Origin: Escherichia phage vB_EcoS_AKFV33
DNA length: 64,000 nucleotides
Sequence record: NC_017969.1
Strand: one strand, 5' to 3'
Part shown: in pieces, positions 47,752 to 57,764 of the stretch
How positions within the stretch are numbered: the stretch's first letter is position 1
How the letters are laid out: every line of letters begins with the position of its first letter
Position numbers and translations under genes: made by a program
Notes under the pieces: model-generated
Databases searched by the model: none
What the model saw: the letters and a program-made list of their open reading frames with translations, nothing else
Told to the model about the DNA's origin: nothing

Positions 47752-47788
47752 AAAAAACCCCAGCGGATTTTGTCCGCTGGGGTTTCTT
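47752..47788. terminator. bidirectional rho-independent terminator between convergent units
   Basis: AAAAAA-CCCCAGCGG-ATTTTGT-CCGCTGGGG-TTTCTT. Confidence 0.65.
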
Positions 47789-48123
47789 ATTATGATATTA
47801 GCTAATATTTTTAGTTTGCCCCTATTTGAGTGGGTTATTTAGATGTTTTTAGTGCCACTATCCCTGCCACCAAATCCTACGTTTGTCTACTTAGATACTA
47901 GACAAATCCTAGTAGACTACAAGGGTTGGGGCTACTCTAGGCCTATCTCTACCATGCCAGGATCATGAATGCCTTTTAAGCTCCGTTGTTATATTTGGTA
48001 TATTAAAATACTATACCCTCTCGTTGGCGATAACACCGAAGTTGGCCATACATATTACGGCCAACATCAGAATAGGATAGAAAATTCTACATCTACAGAA
48101 TTTTTATAGGAATCCAGGTAACG

Positions 48124-49797
48124 TTACTTCTGTACCATTAGGTTGACCAGCTCTCTGAGTTCAGCTAATTCAGCTTTCACCTCAGCCAACTCCCTATCCT
48201 GCTCCTGTACTACTGCCACGATATCTGCTAGTATCGCACGATCGTTCAGGTTGAGCATTCCAGACATGCTACCGGAAAACGCGTAAATCTCATCCGCTTC
48301 TTTAGCTTCCTGAGCAATAAATCCTCGATCTTTACGCCCATCTGATAGCCATTCAAACTCACGCGCAATAAGGTGGTTAATACGGTCGCGGGGGGTGTTA
48401 CCTTCCGTATTGGTGATGTCTGTGATCTTGTCTTTTAGGCGACGATCTGAACCGCCAGGTTGGATAAGGCCTAAATTAGTGTCGATACATGAATTTTCCC
48501 ATTTAAACGCCCAATATTTATTACCGCCTACGGCTCTAGTAATATTTAGTTGTACGGCTCTAAATTGTGTACTACCTTCACGTATGCCACCAAATTCCCA
48601 TCTATCATCATACCAATGACCACGAATAATATTTACGTAGGTATTACCTTCGCTACTAGGAGTAACATTGAAAAACTCGATGGCGTTGGGCTCTCCAGTA
48701 TTACCTACATAGAAACCACCTAGCCCTGGAACCGTTACCGCACCACCTGAGCTAACAGACATTACCTCCCTAGACGTACCTTCTTGTCCTTTCACTTCAA
48801 GCGCAGAATAAAAATCTGTCCCAAAACGGATCTTGGTACGCAATTGTGAGACGTATGCTTCCGCACCTGCAATATTGTACACAGATCGCACAGCGCCGCC
48901 ATATGCCGTTACGCCGCTTGCGGGTTCGGTTGCATCGCCATTAATGACACTCCATGATGTATTTGCTGCAATAAATCCACCGGACGCACGGATTACCCAC
49001 ACACCGACAAAGTTGCGCGTAAGGATTTCATCAGTGGATGCGCCATAAATCGGACTTGAAATTGAAGCATTGAAGTCACAGGTGTTATAACGTCCAGAAA
49101 GAGCTGTACTTCCTGGTGGGATTCCGTCACCTCTTCCGTCAGGGAAAGCATTATTGCTTGCATTAAAACAACCACCTGTTTGACCTAATACTTGGCCGTA
49201 GGTTTGAGAGGCATAAGTGGTGAAAAAACCTGTAATATTAGGCGCAGCGGATTCGAACAGTTGCCCATTTGCACCACTATTCCCACCATCTCCACGGCCA
49301 TAAAGAGCACGTATTGATCCCTCCTGCACCCCATTCTTATCTGGAACACGAAAGGTTGTTGTCCCATCCCCAGATGAGTACTTACCACGCTGAAATTTAT
49401 CCGCTAACCATACGGAATCCTCTATAACACCAACCATTTGAGCGTATGCCCAAAGCTCCGGCCAGTCAGCCCTGTTAAGAAGCTGCCCATCAGAAACTAC
49501 TTCATAAGGTTGAATATACGCACGGCTATCGCGAAGGTGGAAATCACCAACACCGTAATTCATAACACCATTCATAGTGGGACCGACTGTACCGGTGTTA
49601 ATCTTATTCTCTACCCAACGTTTAGTTGCGGCATCATAGTCCCCAACAGGATCTCCCGCAAGAGGGGTGGACCCAATAGGACGCACATTTAACCATGCTG
49701 CTGCACGGTCTGCAAGATCGGATAAATTGTTGTTTTTATCCATCTTTTCGTCTTTAAGTTTTGTAATATCCTGGGGGATATTAGTATAAGTAGTCAT
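48124..49797 (-). CDS. L-shaped tail fibre protein B-like, C-terminal intramolecular chaperone (S74-type)
   Basis: C-terminal ...RINHLIAREFEWLSDGRKDRGFIAQEAKE... then coiled-coil tail; GAGGTG RBS. Confidence 0.65.
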   Translation of the reverse strand: MTTYTNIPQDITKLKDEKMDKNNNLSDLADRAAAWLNVRPIGSTPLAGDPVGDYDAATKRWVENKINTGTVGPTMNGVMNYGVGDFHLRDSRAYIQPYEVVSDGQLLNRADWPELWAYAQMVGVIEDSVWLADKFQRGKYSSGDGTTTFRVPDKNGVQEGSIRALYGRGDGGNSGANGQLFESAAPNITGFFTTYASQTYGQVLGQTGGCFNASNNAFPDGRGDGIPPGSTALSGRYNTCDFNASISSPIYGASTDEILTRNFVGVWVIRASGGFIAANTSWSVINGDATEPASGVTAYGGAVRSVYNIAGAEAYVSQLRTKIRFGTDFYSALEVKGQEGTSREVMSVSSGGAVTVPGLGGFYVGNTGEPNAIEFFNVTPSSEGNTYVNIIRGHWYDDRWEFGGIREGSTQFRAVQLNITRAVGGNKYWAFKWENSCIDTNLGLIQPGGSDRRLKDKITDITNTEGNTPRDRINHLIAREFEWLSDGRKDRGFIAQEAKEADEIYAFSGSMSGMLNLNDRAILADIVAVVQEQDRELAEVKAELAELRELVNLMVQK

Positions 49798-49807
49798 TAA
49801 TCACCTC

Positions 49808-50074
49808 TTATGCCCATTTGCGTACACCGGGATTCTCAATAATGAATTGTTCGATGTCTGACAAGTCTATATTATCTCCTACTATCCTTATATTTATGTA
49901 ATAACCTTCTTTACCAATAATAGCAGGGGTTTTACTTTTAGGGTCGTCTACCATGGGGATAAAACCAATTTCATCTATAAACACGTTACCGTAGTTTGTC
50001 TTAAGCCACCCACTATCAACGACAACATCCCGATAATGTTTTTCATCCTTGAATTGTAAATTAATATCTTTCAC
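49808..50074 (-). CDS. 88-codon ORF contiguous and in frame with upstream fibre gene
   Basis: GTG start is the codon immediately after the TAA of 50075-52429. Confidence 0.4.
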   Translation of the reverse strand: MKDINLQFKDEKHYRDVVVDSGWLKTNYGNVFIDEIGFIPMVDDPKSKTPAIIGKEGYYINIRIVGDNIDLSDIEQFIIENPGVRKWA

Positions 50075-52429
50075 TTAAACTTTCTCCCGCATTTGACTAT
50101 CTGTTAATACTCTATTCCATATTCTAAGGTTACGAATATGACCATACAATTTAGTTGAATCTGAAGGTCTACCGCCTATTTCTACTAACGAGTCCGAGTC
50201 CGTTCCTTTCCAGGTAGAACCGTGTGAGGTACCACCCTTATTCCCATTAACAAACGAGGTGACATCTCCATTACCACTAAAAATAAAACCAAATACATGA
50301 GGAGAAAATTGTTTTTCAAATGCATAACCTCTGGATAATATAGTTGATCCACCCTCATTTACCACATACGCGTAAGGTGTAGCGGAGGTACTGTCAAATT
50401 CCGCAACAAATGCTTTTCCTTCTACGTAGTATGGCTTATTATCAATTATCATTGGGTATGTATTATTTAGTTGAAAGCTATCCCAGTTAATACTTACCTC
50501 AGCAAGTAATGAAATATTAGTTCCTGAGAAATTATTTCTTGCAGGTATAGTAATATAATCTACAGCCCTTGTTGCAGGTGTACTCCCCGTAATAATGAAG
50601 GAGGATGCACAAAACCCTTTTTCAAATTGCGGGGTACAAAATGATATTGTATCTCCAACCTGTACAGGTTGATCATTCTCCCTACAATAATTTACAGATC
50701 CAATAGAGTTACCACCACGTTCTACAAATTTACATGTAGCTTCAACTTTCAACCATCCGTTGTCTTCTCTATATATTCTATGTGTTATAGTACCTCTCCC
50801 TTCTACTACAGAAGAAACTTCACCGGTTTCGCAACTTATGAAAGATCTAGCGCCGAGAATAAGACCTCCGTCCTCACCTACTAAATAAAATTGCGGTGTG
50901 ATATAGATACCCAAGTTTGCTTTTACTCGTATAGATAAAGAAACGTATTCATTTTGCTGACAGTTGATTGCATTTACTGTTTCACAATAAAATAATGAAG
51001 GATACTCACCTTGTGCTTTTTCGTTTACTGTCGCCGTTGCATATGCAAAACCATACTTATCAATATTATAAGTAACATCACTACGGTATTTATCCGTATT
51101 TAATGAAGCGGGGTCATTACTATAAGTGATATAGTTTGTCCGCTGGCCTTCAATTAAGAGTCCTTGCTTTTCAAATCTAGGCTCATCGATATTGGCAATA
51201 CAAAACTCACCGTGTTTGTTTATATATGTTGCATTTGATGCGCGGGAGAAACTGACAACCTTATCCGAGGGCATTGTAATAACATCTTCACCAACTGTTA
51301 TTTTCTTGTATCCTGGCGAGTAACCTGCAAGCATATCAAGCGAGTCATTAAAGGGAATCCATACGTCAGGGAATGGTTGAAGATCCGGACCCCTGTTAGC
51401 TGCAACTTCCGCACGGTCTGCTTCTGCTTTTGCACGGTCTGCTTCTGCCTTAGAGCTGTTTGCACTACCAGCAGCATTGCTAGCTTGTTGCCCGGCCTCA
51501 ATAGCACTATTACCAGCTTGTGTAGCAGAAGCAGCAGCTTGGTTTTTTAAAGCTGTTGTATCAGATACCGCGCTATCCTTAATACCTTGTGTATCCGTTT
51601 TTAATTGCTCAACATCTGCTTTTAAAGTTGTTATCTCGGATACCGCGCTATTTTTAATGGCCTGGGTATCAGATTTTAACTGTTCTACATCCGCTTTTAA
51701 AGCTGTTGTCTCTGTTACAGCACTATTTTTAATGGCCTGGGTATCAGATTTTAACTGTTCGACATCTGATTTAAGTCCTTGAATAGCAGCTACAGATTGG
51801 CTGGCAGAAGTTGCAGATCCAGCAGCATTAGTTTCACTAGTCTTCGCATTAGTTTCGCTAGTCTTCGAGTTGGTTTCAGAGATTTTTGCCGCAGATGCCG
51901 ATGCAGCAGCTTGCCCAGAAAATATTTCCGCCTCATTCCTAAAACCGCTAGAATCAGCCGCTGATTGAGCTGCATTAGTCTCACTTGCCTTTGCATTAGT
52001 CTCACTAATTTTTGCAGCAGCAGCTGATGCGTCTTCACTAGTCTTCGCATTAGTTTCGCTAGTCTTCGAGTTGGTTTCAGAGGTTTTTGCAGCTGCAGCT
52101 GATTCTGCAGATTTAGTAGCAGAAGCGGCAGACTGAGTAGCAGAAGTAGCTGATTGAGTAGCAGAAGCTTCTGAAGCTCCAGCGGAAATAGCAGCATCAT
52201 TTTCAGATTCTTTAGCATTAAGTTCTGAGGTTTTAGCAGCTATTTCAGAATCTTTTGCAGCCGCAGCAGATTTAGCGGCGGCCTCTATAGAAGATACTAA
52301 CTCATTAGCAGTAATAGAGCTAATAGAATTTCCAAGAGTTACTGTGTATCTAGGAAATTTACTAGCAGTAGCTTTAGTATCATCAATATTTAATATTTGT
52401 TGTACAATAATCTTAGTAGTTATTGCCAT
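50075..52429 (-). CDS. L-shaped tail fibre protein A-like (Ala/Ser-rich repeats)
   Basis: N-terminal SETN/AKTS repeats and three 25-aa repeats; no C-terminal chaperone domain. Confidence 0.65.
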   Translation of the reverse strand: MAITTKIIVQQILNIDDTKATASKFPRYTVTLGNSISSITANELVSSIEAAAKSAAAAKDSEIAAKTSELNAKESENDAAISAGASEASATQSATSATQSAASATKSAESAAAAKTSETNSKTSETNAKTSEDASAAAAKISETNAKASETNAAQSAADSSGFRNEAEIFSGQAAASASAAKISETNSKTSETNAKTSETNAAGSATSASQSVAAIQGLKSDVEQLKSDTQAIKNSAVTETTALKADVEQLKSDTQAIKNSAVSEITTLKADVEQLKTDTQGIKDSAVSDTTALKNQAAASATQAGNSAIEAGQQASNAAGSANSSKAEADRAKAEADRAEVAANRGPDLQPFPDVWIPFNDSLDMLAGYSPGYKKITVGEDVITMPSDKVVSFSRASNATYINKHGEFCIANIDEPRFEKQGLLIEGQRTNYITYSNDPASLNTDKYRSDVTYNIDKYGFAYATATVNEKAQGEYPSLFYCETVNAINCQQNEYVSLSIRVKANLGIYITPQFYLVGEDGGLILGARSFISCETGEVSSVVEGRGTITHRIYREDNGWLKVEATCKFVERGGNSIGSVNYCRENDQPVQVGDTISFCTPQFEKGFCASSFIITGSTPATRAVDYITIPARNNFSGTNISLLAEVSINWDSFQLNNTYPMIIDNKPYYVEGKAFVAEFDSTSATPYAYVVNEGGSTILSRGYAFEKQFSPHVFGFIFSGNGDVTSFVNGNKGGTSHGSTWKGTDSDSLVEIGGRPSDSTKLYGHIRNLRIWNRVLTDSQMREKV
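51545..51775 (-). repeat. intragenic tandem repeat, three copies of ~75 nt
   Basis: near-identical 75-nt units encoding 25-aa repeats within fibre gene. Confidence 0.7.
51835..52083 (-). repeat. intragenic dispersed direct repeat (~48 nt, two copies ~200 nt apart)
   Basis: CACTAGTCTTCGCATTAGTTTCGCTAGTCTTCGAGTTGGTTTCAGAG at 51835 and 52036. Confidence 0.65.
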
Positions 52430-52851
52430 TATCTAGTTACCCCATCACTGATAAATACTTTACCCTCCATTATACGAAAAGAGCTAATAGCTGATCCTAT
52501 GACATCTCGTGTCATAATTATATCATAGTATCCTGCAAAACGTTGGCGAGGGTTATACTTATCTCTCTCTTTGGTAGCTTTTTCACCGATATTATCTATA
52601 GCCTCTACAGGTAAACTTATAGCTATAGCACCTTGAGCAGCATCAATAATTTTAGTAGTAAAAGATGCCAAAGTTTCCGCGTTCTCATCAAGCCCGGCCT
52701 TTATAGTACCCCTTAGGGAATACCCTGTTAAGTTAACAGGGGTATTTGTAGGTGGATAAGTACTATCATCAACATCTAAGAATTGCATCATTAGACCATA
52801 AGGTACTTTCTCATCTATCACTAAGTCTATAACTCTATTTTCAGTACTCAT
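52429..52851 (-). CDS. tail collar protein (T5 p132-like, 140 aa)
   Basis: size and position match T5 tail gene order. Confidence 0.5.
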
Positions 52852-52857
52852 TATTTA

Positions 52858-54930
52858 TTACCTTATATGGATATACCCACTATTTAGGTCTATCTTCATC
52901 TTGTAGTATGCCTCAGGATTTCCTGATAACGCAGCGTTCCTATCATAAATGATGTTAACACCGATCTGAGATAAGAAAGCATTTCCTGCTACAATTTTAT
53001 CTGCCGTCACCGTCCCGTTAACAATCATGTTTCCGTGGAGAACCATTGCAGGGTTAACCCAACCAGACCCGTTCCATTGCCTTGTAAATGCTGATTGTGG
53101 GGCATTACTGTTAAATTCAGTTAATACATCATATTTAACTGGGGGAGAACCGAAGTTACTTTGAAAGAAGGAATTAGCTTGTCCATCATCCCAACCACCT
53201 AAACCTGCTATACCTACAGAGTACATCCCAGGACCACGTTGTCCATCATGCCCTATAGTACCTTCAGTACCACTCCACTGAACCACATCTGACCAGCTAG
53301 TACCCTCTAATAACCTATTAGTAACTGGATCAAGCGTACCTGTAGTGGTATAGATATTTTGTGTCATATCTGTACGGTTAGGTGGAGTTTTTGACCAACT
53401 AGGAGGCGGATAATCTTGTTCTAGTGGTTTAGCGGGTAGAGATGTTGCTAACTTATAAACAAATACTGTTTGCTTACCTTGCATACCAGTACCCAGATCT
53501 ACATCGCCATTAGGAGTTCCAATAACTACTCCACTAGAAATACGTAGCACATCACCATCATAACGTATCCATTGTGTGGCGTTACCAATGTCTAGTTTAG
53601 CTTTGGCAGAAGTATTATCCATACCCATCCAAATACCGGAGTTATTATCACCCCAAGATTTACCTTGAGTGTAAATTGCTGGATTATCCTTACCAGATAA
53701 GTTAGTCATGATAAAGTTCGCAGCATTAATATCTCTAGTAATTACTTTACCATCAACGTTAACAACACGGTTTATAGGATCAAAAGAAATAGGTGCTTTT
53801 CCTTCTTCATCTAGCAGACCAATGTTAATAGCACCAGTAGCTGCGTCGATTAAGAATGTCTGTCTCCAGATTTCTCCATCTTTCATGCTGCCCTTAATAA
53901 AGGCATAATTAACATCAATACCCGTCTCATTGACAAAGCTGTTGTCTAGAGGAGTATCTTCATTCAATATAAATGTTACAGGAGCTGATTCTGTTATATC
54001 TTGCTTATTTGGTCCCCAGGCAATTGATGATACCTTAAAAGTATGCTCAACTTTCCATGGGAATGATATAATTGTTGCAGCTCTAGCAGCCCCAACGTTT
54101 ATCTTTTGAGCTTTAGCCCAACCAGTCTTAGCGTATTCTTCAGAGTTTATATAAGTAACCAGAAATTCACGGACATTAGCACCAGCACCACGTTCCCAGT
54201 CCCATTCTATTCTAACATCATATCGTTCCTTACCGTCTGCGATTCGTGCAGCTTTAAAGGCAATGTTAGTAGGTGCAGTAGGTGGTACGAAATTATAAGC
54301 TACAGTGAAAACGCTAGGATATTCATAATAACCAGATGAGTCAACTGTAACACCATCTGGCATCGTAACTTGACCAGATATTCTGATCTTATAGTCACCA
54401 ACAGGAACACCACCAAATTTGATAGTAGGTCCCAGTGCGCCTATATAATATTTAACCCATTCACTATCTTCTGACGCAGTACTTTTTAATTCAATAGTGC
54501 AGTAACTAGCTTCACCAGCAGTCTCTACAACAACTATTGGAGCACCAACACCAACGTCAACGGGTTCTGATTCAGATCTTGCTGCAGTAATTATTGGCTT
54601 TTCCTTTGTTCTAAAGTTAGTTTCATTAGAGAGGTTGATACCAATCTTAGCTTCCAGTAACTCTGAGTCAATAATTGAGTCATAGAAAGCCCCCTGAATC
54701 TCATAGGAAGTAGAGGGGGTTAGATTATTAATCATTACGAAGAAAGTATCTATACCGGTGTAATCACGTCTATCTATACTTTCTCCTCTTTTTAACCAAA
54801 AAGATCTACCAATAACATCATAATCAGTATAAATGGAGTGCTGGACATAAGCCAAAGTATATCCAGTCATTATACTATTTAAGACCATTTTGGCTGGTGC
54901 ATTATTTGAAATCATTAAATGGATGCCCAC
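52858..54930 (-). CDS. central straight fibre protein (T5 pb4-like)
   Basis: size (690 aa) and position downstream of baseplate hub. Confidence 0.55.
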   Translation of the reverse strand: MGIHLMISNNAPAKMVLNSIMTGYTLAYVQHSIYTDYDVIGRSFWLKRGESIDRRDYTGIDTFFVMINNLTPSTSYEIQGAFYDSIIDSELLEAKIGINLSNETNFRTKEKPIITAARSESEPVDVGVGAPIVVVETAGEASYCTIELKSTASEDSEWVKYYIGALGPTIKFGGVPVGDYKIRISGQVTMPDGVTVDSSGYYEYPSVFTVAYNFVPPTAPTNIAFKAARIADGKERYDVRIEWDWERGAGANVREFLVTYINSEEYAKTGWAKAQKINVGAARAATIISFPWKVEHTFKVSSIAWGPNKQDITESAPVTFILNEDTPLDNSFVNETGIDVNYAFIKGSMKDGEIWRQTFLIDAATGAINIGLLDEEGKAPISFDPINRVVNVDGKVITRDINAANFIMTNLSGKDNPAIYTQGKSWGDNNSGIWMGMDNTSAKAKLDIGNATQWIRYDGDVLRISSGVVIGTPNGDVDLGTGMQGKQTVFVYKLATSLPAKPLEQDYPPPSWSKTPPNRTDMTQNIYTTTGTLDPVTNRLLEGTSWSDVVQWSGTEGTIGHDGQRGPGMYSVGIAGLGGWDDGQANSFFQSNFGSPPVKYDVLTEFNSNAPQSAFTRQWNGSGWVNPAMVLHGNMIVNGTVTADKIVAGNAFLSQIGVNIIYDRNAALSGNPEAYYKMKIDLNSGYIHIR

Positions 54931-57764
54931 TCCACAGACTGTTCTCCATCATCCCCTTCAGCTCTAATACGAAAATACAATTTTCTATTTATACCTAGAG
55001 CACCACTGTTCTGGAGAGCAAAATCTGCCTTATTATATGTTAATAAATAGTCATAAGTATACTGATTTTCAATACGTACACTTCTTAACATCCTATTTTG
55101 CGAATCGTGTATTTCAAGGGTATAAAATATACTCTCTATTATATCTTCTTCAGGTATTCTATCCCAGGCTAGTTTCACATCTGGGCCAACAAACTCAGTT
55201 ACATCTCCAGAAGCAGTATTAATTACCCTAAAATTAGATACTACACTAAGGTTTTTAGCAGAGTTAAGTTCTATAGACAGAGTCACCGGGGAACTTCTTC
55301 TACCATTAATATCTACTGCCCTTATCTCAAATATAGCCAGACCTGCTGGTTCTCCAATTATTTCTTGGATCATACGTTCGTTAGGGTTGGTCTCTAACTG
55401 TTGTACTATGTAAGGTTCGGCATGGCCTGAGTGCACAATAGAGTAATAGACTACATTATTGGTTAGACTCGGAAGCCAGGATAACTCACCATTTTTACCT
55501 ATAGAACCTACTAAACCGCCAGGAGTAGGGGTATACTTAAAGTCTCTAGGAGGAAGCACATTGTTACTAATATCTGGTATATCATTACCACTATTATCTA
55601 CTTGATCAGAGTTGATAAATACATCCTCTCCATACTCTTGTAGGGTAACATTTATCTTTCCTTCCCTAGAGTTTTCCACTTCGTCTACTAGGAAGTACTT
55701 CTTATCCCATCCGTAACGGTCGTATGTAAATGCAATAGCATCATTAGGCTCAATACCGATGAATTGATATGGCAATGAGAAAGAAAGTGTTCTTGAGTAT
55801 CTAGATTTCTTAAGTTCCCTATCAGCAAAACTTCTTGCAGTATAATAATTAGTAATATTAGCAAAAGATAGTTGTAGTTTTTTATCCAGGTTCTTGTCTT
55901 GTTCCTTATACTTGGAGTTATAGAATGTAATGGAATTAGTTTTCCAGCTAAGGGCTGGGTCTACGATAGATGCTTGAACTGAGTTGAATTTATTTCTACC
56001 AGTAGTATCTGATAGCTCCAAATCACCATAAGTATCTAGAAAATTAATCTCTAATGGAGTATTAGAGTATTTTTCTACAGTAACCCTGTACTGGCCAGAT
56101 AAGTTGTTAATAGCCCCACCGTAGGACTCTAATAAACCTTGCACATTTTTAAATACTGATTCAGATGTATCCAGAATAGTATTCATTTGTACTATTTGTC
56201 TATTTTCTGCTAGTGGATCAGTCCACCCAACGTATCTCCAATATGGCTGCCAAGATACCTGATAGGATTCATCTATAATATCTAAAATAGCTGCTTCCTG
56301 TATTAATTGCTGAAGGGGGAACTGATCAATGGTAATATTAGCACCGTATCTATCAGAGGTTAAGTAATCAAGTGTTTGCCAAATACCATTTAAACTAGTA
56401 CTATTAGCAGTTACTCTACCATCAGAATGATAGACTTTTACTTTTTTACCTTGAATTTCAGCACTAACTTCAGGAATCTCAGTCCTATTTTCATTAATAG
56501 TGAAGCGCACCACTGCGTATGCAGTATCTAATAGTTTATACCTAGCATCCCAGTACTCCGGTCCATTGCCATTCATATTCTGAAGGTAGAACCCACGTTC
56601 TTTAGCTATATCTACTAGTACTTCAGAAGCCGTTTGATCAGATTTTCCATGATACGTCCAAATTCTTATGTCACCATTACCATCATTATACTTATACTCC
56701 TGCCCATGCACGGAAGGACTACTAGAAGGTGTTCCTGACGCTATTCTTTGCATGGTGTCCCCAGCCACTTTTTTAGTACCAAAGCAGGTTCTAGCGGAGC
56801 TATCATTAGCATCTACGCAGATCATAGGGTTATCACCAAAAGAGAAATCAAGAAAACCATCAATCTCCCCCTCAGCAAAGGCGTATACGACATAAACTAT
56901 GTTGGGATTGTGTAGTTCTGTATCAGCAAAAATTGGTATTCCTGGTATTTTCTGTACTCCATAAACTACTGGGATATATTTAGCAGCAAGGTTAAAATCT
57001 ATATCTACTTCCTTAGTGACAGTTTCATAGTATTTTTTAAGGCTGTAGCTTCTAGATAAGCCAAATAGTTTTTTCTTTGATTTTAGCTTATACCTTTCTT
57101 CCTGTACTTGGTACTTTGCTAGTATAGATATACTCTTATTAGAATGAAAGAACCCATAGTCTTCTTGGTACTCAGGTCTTTTAGCACCATTAGATGGTAC
57201 TAACTGTCCAGCTACAACTTCAAGTCCCCTATGGGAGGCGTCATCAGTATATCTACCATTAACTCTATCAAAATCATAGAATTGGTTAGAACAATTCCAG
57301 GTAATTGTAGAGGTTCCTACTCCAGAGGTACTAATGTTATCTTTAATGCCCCCTCCAGTAATCCTCCCCCTAAAGTATAGTAGAGGACCATTTGTATCTG
57401 GGTCTACTGGTAGAATAGAACCATCTTCGGTAATAATTGCTTGATGAATTGATACGGTTCTATCTAAGAAGGATACACCATTTTGCACTAGTTTTAGTAC
57501 TTCATCCTGTGCTGTACCAGTAATAGTAAAAGATAGACTACCAATAGATAAATCTCTATTTTGTTTGTGTGTGCTAATAGACTTAACTTTACCCGCCTGG
57601 TATAGGATGCCATTATATAGTACATCCCTAAAATAATCAGTTAAATAAATAAAAGCAGTACTAGTACCAGTAGAGCCAGGTAACTCTAGAGAAATTAGAC
57701 TAGCAGTTTTTATTCTGCTATTATTTTTTAAGTAGTTTCTAGCACTATCTAGTATTTTTTTCAT
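54915..57764 (-). CDS. baseplate hub protein (T5 pb3-like)
   Basis: 949 aa, position after Dit. Confidence 0.6.
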   Translation of the reverse strand: MKKILDSARNYLKNNSRIKTASLISLELPGSTGTSTAFIYLTDYFRDVLYNGILYQAGKVKSISTHKQNRDLSIGSLSFTITGTAQDEVLKLVQNGVSFLDRTVSIHQAIITEDGSILPVDPDTNGPLLYFRGRITGGGIKDNISTSGVGTSTITWNCSNQFYDFDRVNGRYTDDASHRGLEVVAGQLVPSNGAKRPEYQEDYGFFHSNKSISILAKYQVQEERYKLKSKKKLFGLSRSYSLKKYYETVTKEVDIDFNLAAKYIPVVYGVQKIPGIPIFADTELHNPNIVYVVYAFAEGEIDGFLDFSFGDNPMICVDANDSSARTCFGTKKVAGDTMQRIASGTPSSSPSVHGQEYKYNDGNGDIRIWTYHGKSDQTASEVLVDIAKERGFYLQNMNGNGPEYWDARYKLLDTAYAVVRFTINENRTEIPEVSAEIQGKKVKVYHSDGRVTANSTSLNGIWQTLDYLTSDRYGANITIDQFPLQQLIQEAAILDIIDESYQVSWQPYWRYVGWTDPLAENRQIVQMNTILDTSESVFKNVQGLLESYGGAINNLSGQYRVTVEKYSNTPLEINFLDTYGDLELSDTTGRNKFNSVQASIVDPALSWKTNSITFYNSKYKEQDKNLDKKLQLSFANITNYYTARSFADRELKKSRYSRTLSFSLPYQFIGIEPNDAIAFTYDRYGWDKKYFLVDEVENSREGKINVTLQEYGEDVFINSDQVDNSGNDIPDISNNVLPPRDFKYTPTPGGLVGSIGKNGELSWLPSLTNNVVYYSIVHSGHAEPYIVQQLETNPNERMIQEIIGEPAGLAIFEIRAVDINGRRSSPVTLSIELNSAKNLSVVSNFRVINTASGDVTEFVGPDVKLAWDRIPEEDIIESIFYTLEIHDSQNRMLRSVRIENQYTYDYLLTYNKADFALQNSGALGINRKLYFRIRAEGDDGEQSVEWASI

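Follow-up and report, generated by a model that had tools for sequence, protein, structure and literature searches.

The lateral tail-fibre locus of AKFV33

In Escherichia phage vB_EcoS_AKFV33 (sequence record NC_017969.1; the window analysed spans 64,000 nucleotides), the tail-fibre locus consists of three genes, all located on the minus strand, which encode proteins of 784, 88 and 557 amino acids. The 784-aa and 557-aa reading frames, at 50075-52429 and 48124-49797, are real and lie where a preliminary description of this DNA had placed them; their products are identical to AET24749 (AKFV33 ORF137, 'ltpA') and AET24747 (ORF135, 'ltpB'), respectively, and the former matches the tail protein family PHROG 1419 (E 2e-222). 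That description had proposed a two-component fibre, which is correct in that the locus encodes a multi-component lateral tail fibre, but it overlooked the third gene, ORF136, which lies between the two fibre genes at 49808-50074. The GTG start codon of this 88-aa gene abuts the TAA stop codon of the 784-aa gene, with GGGAGAAAG upstream. The GC content of the 557-aa gene is 0.459, as against 0.35-0.40 in its neighbours. Upstream of the fibre genes are those for LtfC and pb4. The LtfC-type collar protein (140 aa; 52429-52851, minus strand) was recognised with Pfam PF23926 (E 3.9e-14), and in the cryo-EM structure of DT57C LtfC is the ring that grips the N-termini of the proximal fibre (PMC10713586). 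The fibre operon is closed by a bidirectional terminator hairpin at 47752-47788, with a 16-bp stem that includes 8 GC pairs and a T run on either strand; the bidirectional terminator annotated in T5 occupies the same place.

Niu et al. (2012, PLoS One 7:e34585; PMC3326045) described AKFV33 as a T5-like phage specific for O157:H7 that lacks the T5 Ltf and builds its fibres from two proteins. In an analysis of CsCl-purified virions that covered four gel bands only, they detected ORF137 by peptides spanning residues 7-27 to 774-781, and since the peptides extend that far (Table S2), the C-terminus of ORF137 is unprocessed. Their report gives no S74, LamG or lectin domains, no discussion of ORF136 and no assembly model. 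The locus is an already published lateral tail fibre and an ordinary example of a known fibre type rather than a new system.

Domains and variable regions of the fibre proteins

The 784-aa proximal protein begins with a virion anchor (aa 1-40; 52310-52429) which inserts into the LtfC collar, as judged from its homology to residues 1-40 of DT57C LtfA, which are visible within the collar in structure 8hqz (PMC10713586). The anchor is 95-100% identical in T5-like relatives versus 17-25% in Queuovirinae, whose counterparts use a different virion anchor. It is followed by a shaft (aa 41-345; 51395-52309) that carries repeats and is recognisable by composition (26% Ala, 16% Ser and 10% Thr over residues 41-350) and by homology to LtfA (53% identity between residues 1-209 and LtfA 1-205). 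Together with 51% identity between residues 1-216 and T5 pb1 1-218, this composition bears out the earlier reading of the N-terminus as an Ala/Ser-rich shaft of the T5 type. The shaft is probably a trimeric alpha-helical coiled coil; the helix of LtfA begins at T40 (PMC10713586). Repeats in the DNA had been noted inside this gene, and they comprise three tandem 75-nt (25-aa) units at 51545-51772 (TRF score 302, 83% matches) and several arrays of 21-nt repeats, found by repeat search at 51825-52168, which encode heptads of the SETNAKT type. The suggestion that such repeats underlie length variation agrees with the distribution of length differences among orthologues, as every large indel falls within the shaft. 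Relatives of class B (one of two allele classes described below) lack exactly one 25-aa (75-nt) unit (aa 244-268), relatives show a 7-aa (one-heptad) indel and a 31-aa indel in the area of the heptad arrays, and the SelmaRatti orthologue has a 247-aa deletion in the repeat-rich shaft.

Between the shaft and the C-terminal domains is a junction (aa 346-440; 51110-51394), a putative docking region for the distal fibre, which hardly varies within class A (entropy about 0.08) and keeps 65-100% identity over both allele classes and all lineages. The junction is unstructured in an AF2 monomer model (pLDDT 30-45), as would be expected of a segment that is oligomeric or forms an interface. The remainder of the chain consists of two jelly-roll domains, one resembling the GTA head-spike fibre (aa 441-622; 50564-51109; NCBIfam GTA_spike_fiber match at aa 425-622, E 6e-14) and the other a Laminin_G_3, or ConA-like lectin, domain (aa 624-779; 50093-50560; E 8e-9), in which aa 661-720 (50270-50449) form a variable hot spot. 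This lectin-like C-terminus is absent from the preliminary description. Confidence in the AF2 model of this C-terminal module is only moderate (mean pLDDT 65), and the fold and the variable hot spot suggest that the two ConA-like domains probably bind glycan. Searches of the 784-aa protein with Pfam revealed no Peptidase_S74 domain even at E<=10, and the Ser/Lys motif of S74 domains (SDARLK in T5 pb1) was not found in it.

The 557-aa distal protein, which is collinear with Gp24 of Bas32, does contain Peptidase_S74 (aa 450-501, E 4.9e-8, 33.6 bits against a Pfam cut-off of 22), in agreement with the initial assignment of the chaperone to this protein only. The intramolecular chaperone (PF13884; aa 450-557; 48127-48450) starts with the motif S450-D-R-R-L-K455, which aligns with S1264-D-A-R-L-K1269 of T5 pb1. 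From domain and motif, the chaperone is predicted to cleave itself off before Ser450, which would reduce the protein from 60.5 kDa to a mature distal fibre of 48.2 kDa. At the other end of the protein, a short segment (aa 1-28; 49714-49797) is specific to fibres of the three-gene type and is a candidate attachment peptide; in other phages homology to the 557-aa protein starts at aa 15-49, inside longer single-chain fibres. Within the conserved collar-like core, variable loops at aa 161-240 (49078-49317) have 10-95% identity among relatives and are located between blocks of 85-100% identity. Humolli et al. (PMC11990801) name the corresponding region 'Gp12-like RBD1', although the link of the core to gp12 was not recovered from sequence (Pfam Collar at E 0.6; a PDB profile search matched 8hqz only). 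The tip ('T5-like RBD2' in the same naming; aa 281-449; 48451-48957) is 0-50% identical to most relatives, and its DNA was found in just three distinct phages among 50,697 records, namely WP85 (97%), ESCO40 (93%) and NBEco002 (84%).

Conservation across the two fibre proteins is mosaic. All relatives conserve proximal aa 281-440 and distal aa 41-120, the proximal lectin module (aa 441-760) occurs as two allele classes, between which distal aa 1-20 also differ, and the distal tip is hypervariable. Distal aa 161-240 and aa 281-449 and aa 661-720 of the LamG domain are likely host-range determinants because they are hypervariable, and there are up to three candidate sites for glycan binding on the fibre. 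Variability is greatest in the distal tip, which is also the likeliest candidate for the determinant of O157:H7 specificity.

The 88-aa protein belongs to PHROG 1361, a family of unknown function. In a survey that covered T5-like phages, Queuovirinae and lambdoid prophages, the gene for this family comes right after a fibre gene that encodes the lectin module at about 80 of 83 loci, with or without a distal fibre at the locus. This consistent coupling across three groups of phages and prophages is a modest new point. The protein is modelled by AF2 with a pLDDT of 92, yet a fold search gave no informative match. The 88-aa protein and the lectin module (aa 441-760) divide into the same two allele classes, a co-variation that is confounded by physical linkage since the genes are adjacent. 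Synteny suggests that the 88-aa protein most likely aids folding of the lectin module or stays bound to it.

A model for fibre assembly and its alternatives

It is probable that the locus encodes a three-gene lateral fibre, L-shaped in type, of the IrisVonRoten/Bas32 architecture, which would be assembled as follows. The 784-aa protein would trimerise and plug its first ~40 residues into the LtfC collar, from which the Ala/Ser-rich coiled-coil shaft of about 300 residues would extend outward. Homology to a solved structure and virion mass spectrometry show this anchor and shaft part of the model. Beyond the junction each chain would terminate in its two ConA-like jelly-roll domains, and the 88-aa protein, made right after the 784-aa protein and allele-matched to the lectin module, would stand in for the missing intramolecular chaperone. 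The 557-aa protein would trimerise with the aid of its S74 chaperone, lose the chaperone, dock through its short N-terminus on the proximal junction and expose its two variable regions (aa 161-240 and aa 281-449) to the O-antigen of the host. That the 557-aa protein attaches to the 784-aa protein is inferred from sequence conservation together with an AlphaFold-Multimer model published for the Bas32 homologues.

The two larger genes could instead be fragments of one LtfA-like gene split by a frameshift or insertion, given that residues 1-209 of the 784-aa protein and residues 2-548 of the 557-aa protein align in order with LtfA 1-205 and 508-1073. Such a split is rejected, as collinearity with LtfA is confined to the ends. 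LtfA has nothing that corresponds to about 570 residues of the 784-aa protein, among them the 430-aa junction-plus-lectin part, an intact and conserved 88-aa gene separates the two ORFs, and every gene has a start and a ribosome-binding site of its own. Moreover, all three genes are found intact in 91 phage records and in many metagenomic contigs, and the full-length 784-aa product is present in virions (PMC3326045); the two ORFs were rightly treated as separate genes in the preliminary description. The resemblance to DT57C LtfA/LtfB proposed there stands for the anchor, the distal core and the S74 domain, which are homologous, but not for the way in which the proteins are joined. If the 784-aa and 557-aa proteins were equivalents of LtfA and LtfB, the 557-aa protein would dock laterally through an interface of the phiEco32 gp14/gp15 type; in DT57C, LtfB docks by a gp15-like N-terminus on a gp14-like LtfA segment, aa 223-471. 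The matching N-termini, the 58% identity between aa 30-357 of the 557-aa protein and LtfB 206-531, and the location of both loci between ltfC and the dUTPase-side genes favour this arrangement. It is nevertheless very unlikely, and the lack of the docking modules goes far to refute it: neither LtfA aa 223-471 nor LtfB aa 1-205, which includes the 45 gp15-like residues, has a counterpart in AKFV33. In addition, both DT57C proteins carry S74 (PMC4728585), the 557-aa protein aligns over 547 residues, chaperone included, with the C-terminal half of LtfA, and DT57C lacks both the lectin module and the 88-aa gene.

It is also conceivable, if unlikely, that the 784-aa and 88-aa proteins form a complete lectin-tipped side fibre and that the 557-aa protein is located elsewhere on the tail or is unattached to the 784-aa protein. 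Lambdoid prophages possess a lectin-module fibre and an 88-aa homologue without a distal fibre, the next gene encoding a 97-aa membrane protein or the prophage ending there, and no more than ~28 residues of the 557-aa protein are peculiar to the three-gene fibre type. The N-terminus of the 557-aa protein, however, has no similarity to the LtfC-binding N-terminus, and the distal gene follows the pair of lectin-fibre and 88-aa genes in both T5-like phages and Queuovirinae even though their virion anchors are unrelated (17-25% identity over aa 1-40; PF08400 N-termini). With the same distal gene downstream of unrelated anchors, a common docking site has to be part of the shared module rather than of the virion, and the published multimer model places the distal homologue on the proximal fibre (PMC11990801). 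A more tentative matter is the role of the 88-aa protein, which might be a structural adaptor, or 'knee', linking the proximal and distal fibres, instead of serving the lectin module as chaperone or partner. The gene is placed precisely between those for the proximal and distal fibres, distal aa 1-20 differ between the two allele classes into which the 88-aa protein also falls, and the small gene is annotated 'tail fiber protein' in SelmaRatti and Bas32. An adaptor role is nonetheless doubtful: lambdoid prophages lacking a distal fibre still keep the family, JenP1/JenP2-type phages combine it with distal proteins lacking a 557-type N-terminus, and linkage alone could explain the class-specific differences in distal aa 1-20.

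Relationship to known fibres

T5 pb1 (Ltf) is a single L-shaped fibre chain of 1396 aa, in contrast to the separate proteins of AKFV33. The two phages share locus position, downstream terminator and the S74 Ser/Lys motif, and outside the N-terminus and this cleavage motif pb1 has no sequence similarity to the AKFV33 fibre proteins. The branched LtfA-LtfB fibre of DT57C and DT571/2 (Golomidova et al. 2016, PMC4728585; 8HQZ, Ayala et al. 2023, PMC10713586) likewise has an LtfC-bound N-terminal anchor and a coiled coil, but it is encoded by two genes rather than three. The C-terminal part of LtfA and LtfB are both homologous to the AKFV33 distal core and S74 chaperone, with the 557-aa protein being 45% identical to LtfA 508-1073. 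Side tail fibres of lambdoid prophages, annotated 'prophage tail fiber N-terminal domain-containing protein' (PF08400 plus LamG), share the AKFV33 junction and lectin module at about 40% identity, and the 88-aa homologue is always next downstream. Unlike AKFV33, they have a Stf-type N-terminal anchor and, in place of a distal S74 fibre, the membrane protein.

The architecture that matches AKFV33 is that of IrisVonRoten (Bas32), described in 2025, rather than the DT57C design. For Bas32, Humolli et al. (2025, PMC11990801) modelled a proximal Gp22 with a galectin-like end and a 'T-shaped' distal Gp24 with an IMC. Gene order is the same in the two phages (the middle gene encodes 92 aa in Bas32), S74 is present in the distal protein only, and the proximal proteins are collinear with 52% identity, compared with 46% for the distal proteins. 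The two phages have almost the same N-terminal anchor and share about 90% identity over distal aa 1-160, whereas the lectin-module alleles differ (10-27% identity over aa 441-760), the small proteins share 35% identity and the distal-tip alleles are different; Bas32 recognises O16 and AKFV33 is O157:H7-specific. SelmaRatti, APCEc03 and the Nonagvirus BRET have the three-gene layout and collinear proteins as in AKFV33.

Gene content of the fibre locus

The lateral tail fibre genes of AKFV33 lie on the minus strand within a T5-type tail operon. In the direction of transcription, genes for a pb3-like hub (54915-57764), pb4 (52858-54930, with four PB4 Pfam domains) and the collar protein LtfC (52429-52851; PF23926), all on the same strand, precede those for the proximal 784-aa fibre protein (50075-52429) and the distal 557-aa fibre protein (48124-49797). 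A preliminary description based on the sequence had treated the fibre locus as consisting of two components. Both of its ORFs exist, but the locus has three genes, as an ORF for an 88-aa protein (49808-50074, minus strand) that was missing from that account sits between the two fibre genes. A strong bidirectional terminator hairpin with a 16-bp stem (47752-47788) closes the fibre operon, and T5 has an annotated bidirectional terminator at the same place. The approximately 335 nt between the hairpin and the stop codon of the 557-aa gene contain no ORF of at least 60 aa (interval 47752-48123) and only two small plus-strand ORFs of 41 and 46 aa; in T5 the corresponding position is annotated with a small ORF and a promoter. 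The GC content of the distal fibre gene is 45.9%, versus 35-40% in ltfC, pb4 and the genes for the 88-aa and 784-aa proteins, which fits a separate origin of the distal gene and suggests that it was recently acquired from a higher-GC source. The best DNA match to the fibre locus in the phage collection has about 90% identity, and the AKFV33 record itself is not among the matches.

The 784-aa and 557-aa proteins are exact matches to AKFV33 AET24749 and AET24747. Niu and coworkers (2012, PMC3326045) reported that AKFV33, which is specific for O157:H7, lacks the L-shaped fibre protein of T5 and that its fibres consist of two proteins, ORF137 (ltpA) and ORF135 (ltpB). ORF136, which is the 88-aa protein, is not discussed in that paper (PMC3326045).

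Domains and assembly of the fibre proteins

A domain search of both fibre proteins agrees with the earlier proposal that only the distal gene carries an intramolecular chaperone. [quoted passage not shown] In the 784-aa protein Peptidase_S74 was not found by Pfam search even at E ≤ 10, nor was an S-D-x-x-x-K cleavage motif. The Ser-Lys dyad motif of the 557-aa protein, S450-DRRL-K455, aligns with S1264-DARL-K1269 of T5 pb1, in which S1264 and K1269 are reportedly catalytic according to work by Garcia-Doval et al. in 2015. A C-terminal S74 domain and the dyad motif are thereby features that the 557-aa protein shares with auto-cleaving fibres and spikes such as the K1F endosialidase and T5 pb1. 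Judging from the domain and the motif, the 557-aa protein would trimerise through the chaperone, and self-cleavage before Ser450 would release a mature chain of about 48 kDa (predicted mass, 48.2 kDa). Searches for a link between the remainder of the distal fibre and T4 gp12 or T5 pb1 gave only noise with phmmer against the PDB (distal-core and tip sub-segments, E ≤ 10), a profile of 8 homologues matched only 8hqz in the PDB, and the Pfam Collar match on the distal core was sub-threshold (E 0.6). Since these links were not recovered by sequence searches, the names of the distal domains (Gp12-like and T5-like) are taken from the literature.

The 784-aa protein has the Ala/Ser-rich shaft of T5 type that had been noted from the sequence, as borne out by composition (26% Ala and 16% Ser in residues 41-350) and by 51% identity of residues 1-216 to residues 1-218 of T5 pb1, a region comprising the LtfC-binding anchor and coiled coil. 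Identity of the first 216 residues to LtfA of phage DT57C is 53%. The suggestion that DNA repeats inside this gene could drive length variation is also supported. A 75-nt unit is repeated three times at 51545-51772 and arrays of 21-nt heptad repeats occupy 51825-52168. Orthologues differ in length from the 784-aa protein by exactly one 25-aa unit, one 7-aa heptad or 31 aa, or by a 247-aa deletion in SelmaRatti, and every such difference falls within the shaft. The SelmaRatti (Bas34) orthologue (positions 3856-5469 of comparison locus L001) is a natural short-fibre variant of only 537 aa which, with approximately 247 shaft residues absent, keeps the anchor, the junction (residues 346-440 of the 784-aa protein) and the C-terminal module.

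The preliminary description was correct that the 784-aa protein does not end in a chaperone, but it overlooked the lectin-like domains that follow the shaft. These are a GTA-head-spike-fibre-type domain (NCBIfam NF048003, residues 425-622, E 6e-14) and a Laminin_G_3 domain (residues 624-779, E 8e-9), and the module that they form has a lectin-like fold resembling botulinum toxin receptor-binding domains, pentraxins and LamG domains. This lectin module has more than 2,400 homologues, and in most of these it is fused to PF08400, the Stf-type anchor found in lambdoid prophages. ORF137 was identified in CsCl-purified AKFV33 virions (PMC3326045), and its 33 peptides span residues 7-27 to 774-781 (PMC3326045 Table S2), indicating that the lectin-like C-terminus is present and unprocessed in the particle. 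The full-length protein in virions provides direct experimental support for the absence of a chaperone on the first gene. The observed mass of ORF137 was 95.8 kDa versus a calculated 83.1 kDa (PMC3326045 Table 3), and this anomalous migration could reflect a modification or the acidic, Ala/Ser-rich nature of the shaft.

Comparison with relatives reveals a mosaic. In the 784-aa protein, residues 1-40 are a lineage-specific anchor, residues 41-297 the length-variable shaft, and residues 281-440 are conserved across all relatives, with almost no variation inside the allele class to which AKFV33 belongs. Residues 441-760 fall into two allele classes, A and B, with a mutual identity of only 10-27%, and the 88-aa protein follows the same division, the AKFV33 copy having 72-100% identity to those of class-A relatives versus 13-45% to those of class-B relatives. 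Among 27 otherwise close class-A homologues there is a variability hot spot in the LamG domain at residues 661-720 (50270-50449), which varies independently of the 88-aa protein and so points to a ligand-binding surface. In the 557-aa protein, residues 41-120 have 92-100% identity in nearly all relatives of either allele class, residues 161-240 are variable and residues 281-557 are hypervariable; the DNA for residues 281-557 was found in only three distinct phages, WP85, ESCO40 and NBEco002, in a search of 50,697 records.

Homology to a solved structure together with the proteomic data shows that the LtfC collar holds the trimer of the 784-aa protein, which occurs at full length in virions. 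Conservation and a published multimer model of homologous proteins point to the junction at residues 346-440 as the site on which the distal fibre would dock through its short N-terminus; this junction is disordered in a monomer model, as expected for an interface segment. Fold and variability suggest that surface glycans may be bound by the lectin module and by both variable regions of the distal fibre, with the distal tip probably the main specificity determinant. The fibre locus is likely the basis of the narrow O157:H7 specificity of AKFV33, a proposed biocontrol phage. The resulting module map comprises an anchor, a length-variable shaft, a conserved junction, a lectin module to which the 88-aa protein is matched, and a distal fibre that bears two variable regions and a chaperone predicted to cleave itself off. 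Host-range swaps that do not break assembly would be possible at the conserved blocks (residues 281-440 of the 784-aa protein and 41-120 of the 557-aa protein), with the 88-aa gene to be moved along with the lectin module.

The 88-aa protein family

The family of the 88-aa protein (PHROG 1361) is annotated as 'hypothetical' throughout and has no Pfam model. It forms approximately 130 clusters at 90% identity, an exhaustive profile search yielded 96 representatives (50% identity), and the family occurs in 91 phage records from T5-like phages, Queuovirinae and lambdoid phages. The profile also gave 4-13 weak matched stretches in giant PKD-repeat proteins of 1,300-6,100 aa (representatives P0253, P0256, P0257, P0261, P0287 and P0298); these are probably compositional artefacts, since Pfam scans of the same proteins show many zero-stretch spurious matches to unrelated families.

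When 80 IMG/VR loci and reference phages were inspected, the gene was found directly 3' of a fibre gene ending in the junction-plus-lectin module in about 80 of 83 loci. In T5-like phages and Queuovirinae the next gene encodes a distal fibre with S74; in lambdoid prophages it encodes a 97-aa membrane protein, or the prophage ends. This synteny with a variable next gene indicates that the lectin-tipped fibre and the small protein together make up the conserved unit, to which a distal fibre may or may not be added. The conserved 97-aa lambdoid protein has hydrophobic, membrane-spanning-like segments (L031 5289-5582, and many of the loci L029-L088).

The start codon of the 88-aa ORF abuts the stop codon of the 784-aa ORF. 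A place directly 3' of the fibre gene that it would serve is one expected of a dedicated tail-fibre assembly chaperone (Tfa of lambda and Mu, gp38 of T4 and gp57A were considered), but no resemblance of the 88-aa protein to any known chaperone family was found in sequence or fold. Its synteny suggests that the 88-aa protein may assist or accompany the lectin module. One tentative reading, which we regard as possible though somewhat short of probable, is that it represents a hitherto unrecognised class of small accessory protein for ConA/LamG-tipped side fibres of enterobacterial siphoviruses (T5-like phages, Queuovirinae and lambdoid prophages), acting either as a chaperone in place of the intramolecular one that the proximal fibre lacks or as a subunit of the lectin module bound at the tip. 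The position of the gene between both fibre genes in AKFV33 would also suit a structural adaptor joining the proximal and distal fibres, a role we consider less likely for a family whose lambdoid members are followed by a membrane protein or the prophage end. Were the protein indeed an accessory of the lectin tip, the AKFV33 fibre would have three separate glycan-binding sites on two trimers.

Comparison with known lateral tail fibres

In T5 pb1, the anchor, shaft, receptor-binding tip and intramolecular chaperone reside in one polypeptide, whereas AKFV33 has three separate genes with the chaperone and anchor on different proteins, so the claim that the locus differs from that of T5 itself stands. 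The accompanying claim, that it resembles branched-fibre T5 relatives, fails for those of the DT57C type, leaving the preliminary interpretation only partly right, even though the underlying observation was confirmed. Sequence searches for solved structures found only LtfA of DT57C (8hqz chain d), in which residues 1-208 match the 784-aa protein and residues 528-1006 the 557-aa protein. The core of the 557-aa protein (residues 30-357) has 58% identity to residues 206-531 of DT57C LtfB. Pairwise BLASTP and the distribution of S74 domains were used to look for three defining features of the branched LtfA/LtfB fibre, and none was present. The 784-aa protein aligns with LtfA over residues 1-209 only and lacks the phiEco32 gp14-like docking segment (LtfA 223-471). 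The 557-aa protein aligns to LtfB from residue 206 onward, with no counterpart of LtfB 1-205 and its phiEco32 gp15-like attachment peptide. Finally, LtfA and LtfB each have their own receptor-binding region ending in S74 (PMC4728585), whereas in AKFV33 S74 occurs on the 557-aa protein only.

The two ORFs could alternatively be read as a single fibre gene interrupted by a frameshift. Their collinearity with LtfA is confined to the ends, however, and this reading is also ruled out by the 430-aa junction-plus-lectin segment and the intact gene that lie between the ORF ends, by the separate start of each gene and by the intact arrangement in many phages. DT57C LtfA (L005) has at residues 342-400 a second, weaker copy of a collar-like motif (…DG..L.R.DYP..W…GDG.TTFR.PD) that aligns with residues 97-155 of the 557-aa protein and falls within the proposed docking region for LtfB. 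An engineering paper on the 'long tail fibre' of PH204/SP76 deals with pb3/pb4, another locus (PMC11938639).

The subject is already in the literature, which described the two-protein fibre of AKFV33 in 2012 and, in 2025, how the fibre of its closest structural relative is built. Beyond that work, the present analysis contributes a domain-level map, rejects both a DT57C-type fibre and a frameshifted gene, and shows that the uncharacterised 88-aa family is strictly coupled to lectin-tipped side fibres in three siphovirus lineages; the finding is otherwise ordinary. The closest relative, IrisVonRoten (Bas32), has the same layout with proteins of 796, 92 and 574 aa. Its fibre proteins are collinear with those of AKFV33 (52% identity for the proximal fibre and 46% for the distal fibre versus Gp24 over the full length), and the two phages share the gene order ltfC, proximal fibre, ~90-aa gene and distal fibre, with collinear homologues. 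The three-gene set is also found in SelmaRatti, APCEc03, FFH1, NBEco002 and the Nonagvirus BRET. In an AlphaFold-Multimer model of the Bas32 fibre, a galectin-like domain protrudes at the C-terminus of the proximal fibre (Humolli et al. 2025, PMC11990801), and the distal fibre joined to the proximal one is described as 'T-shaped' and comprises a Gp12-like RBD1 and a T5-like RBD2 along with an intramolecular chaperone; no role was assigned to the small middle protein (PMC11990801). The AKFV33 proximal fibre has the Bas32-type trait of ending in a galectin/ConA-like jelly-roll domain with no intramolecular chaperone, and IrisVonRoten/Bas32 is the right comparator for the AKFV33 fibre.
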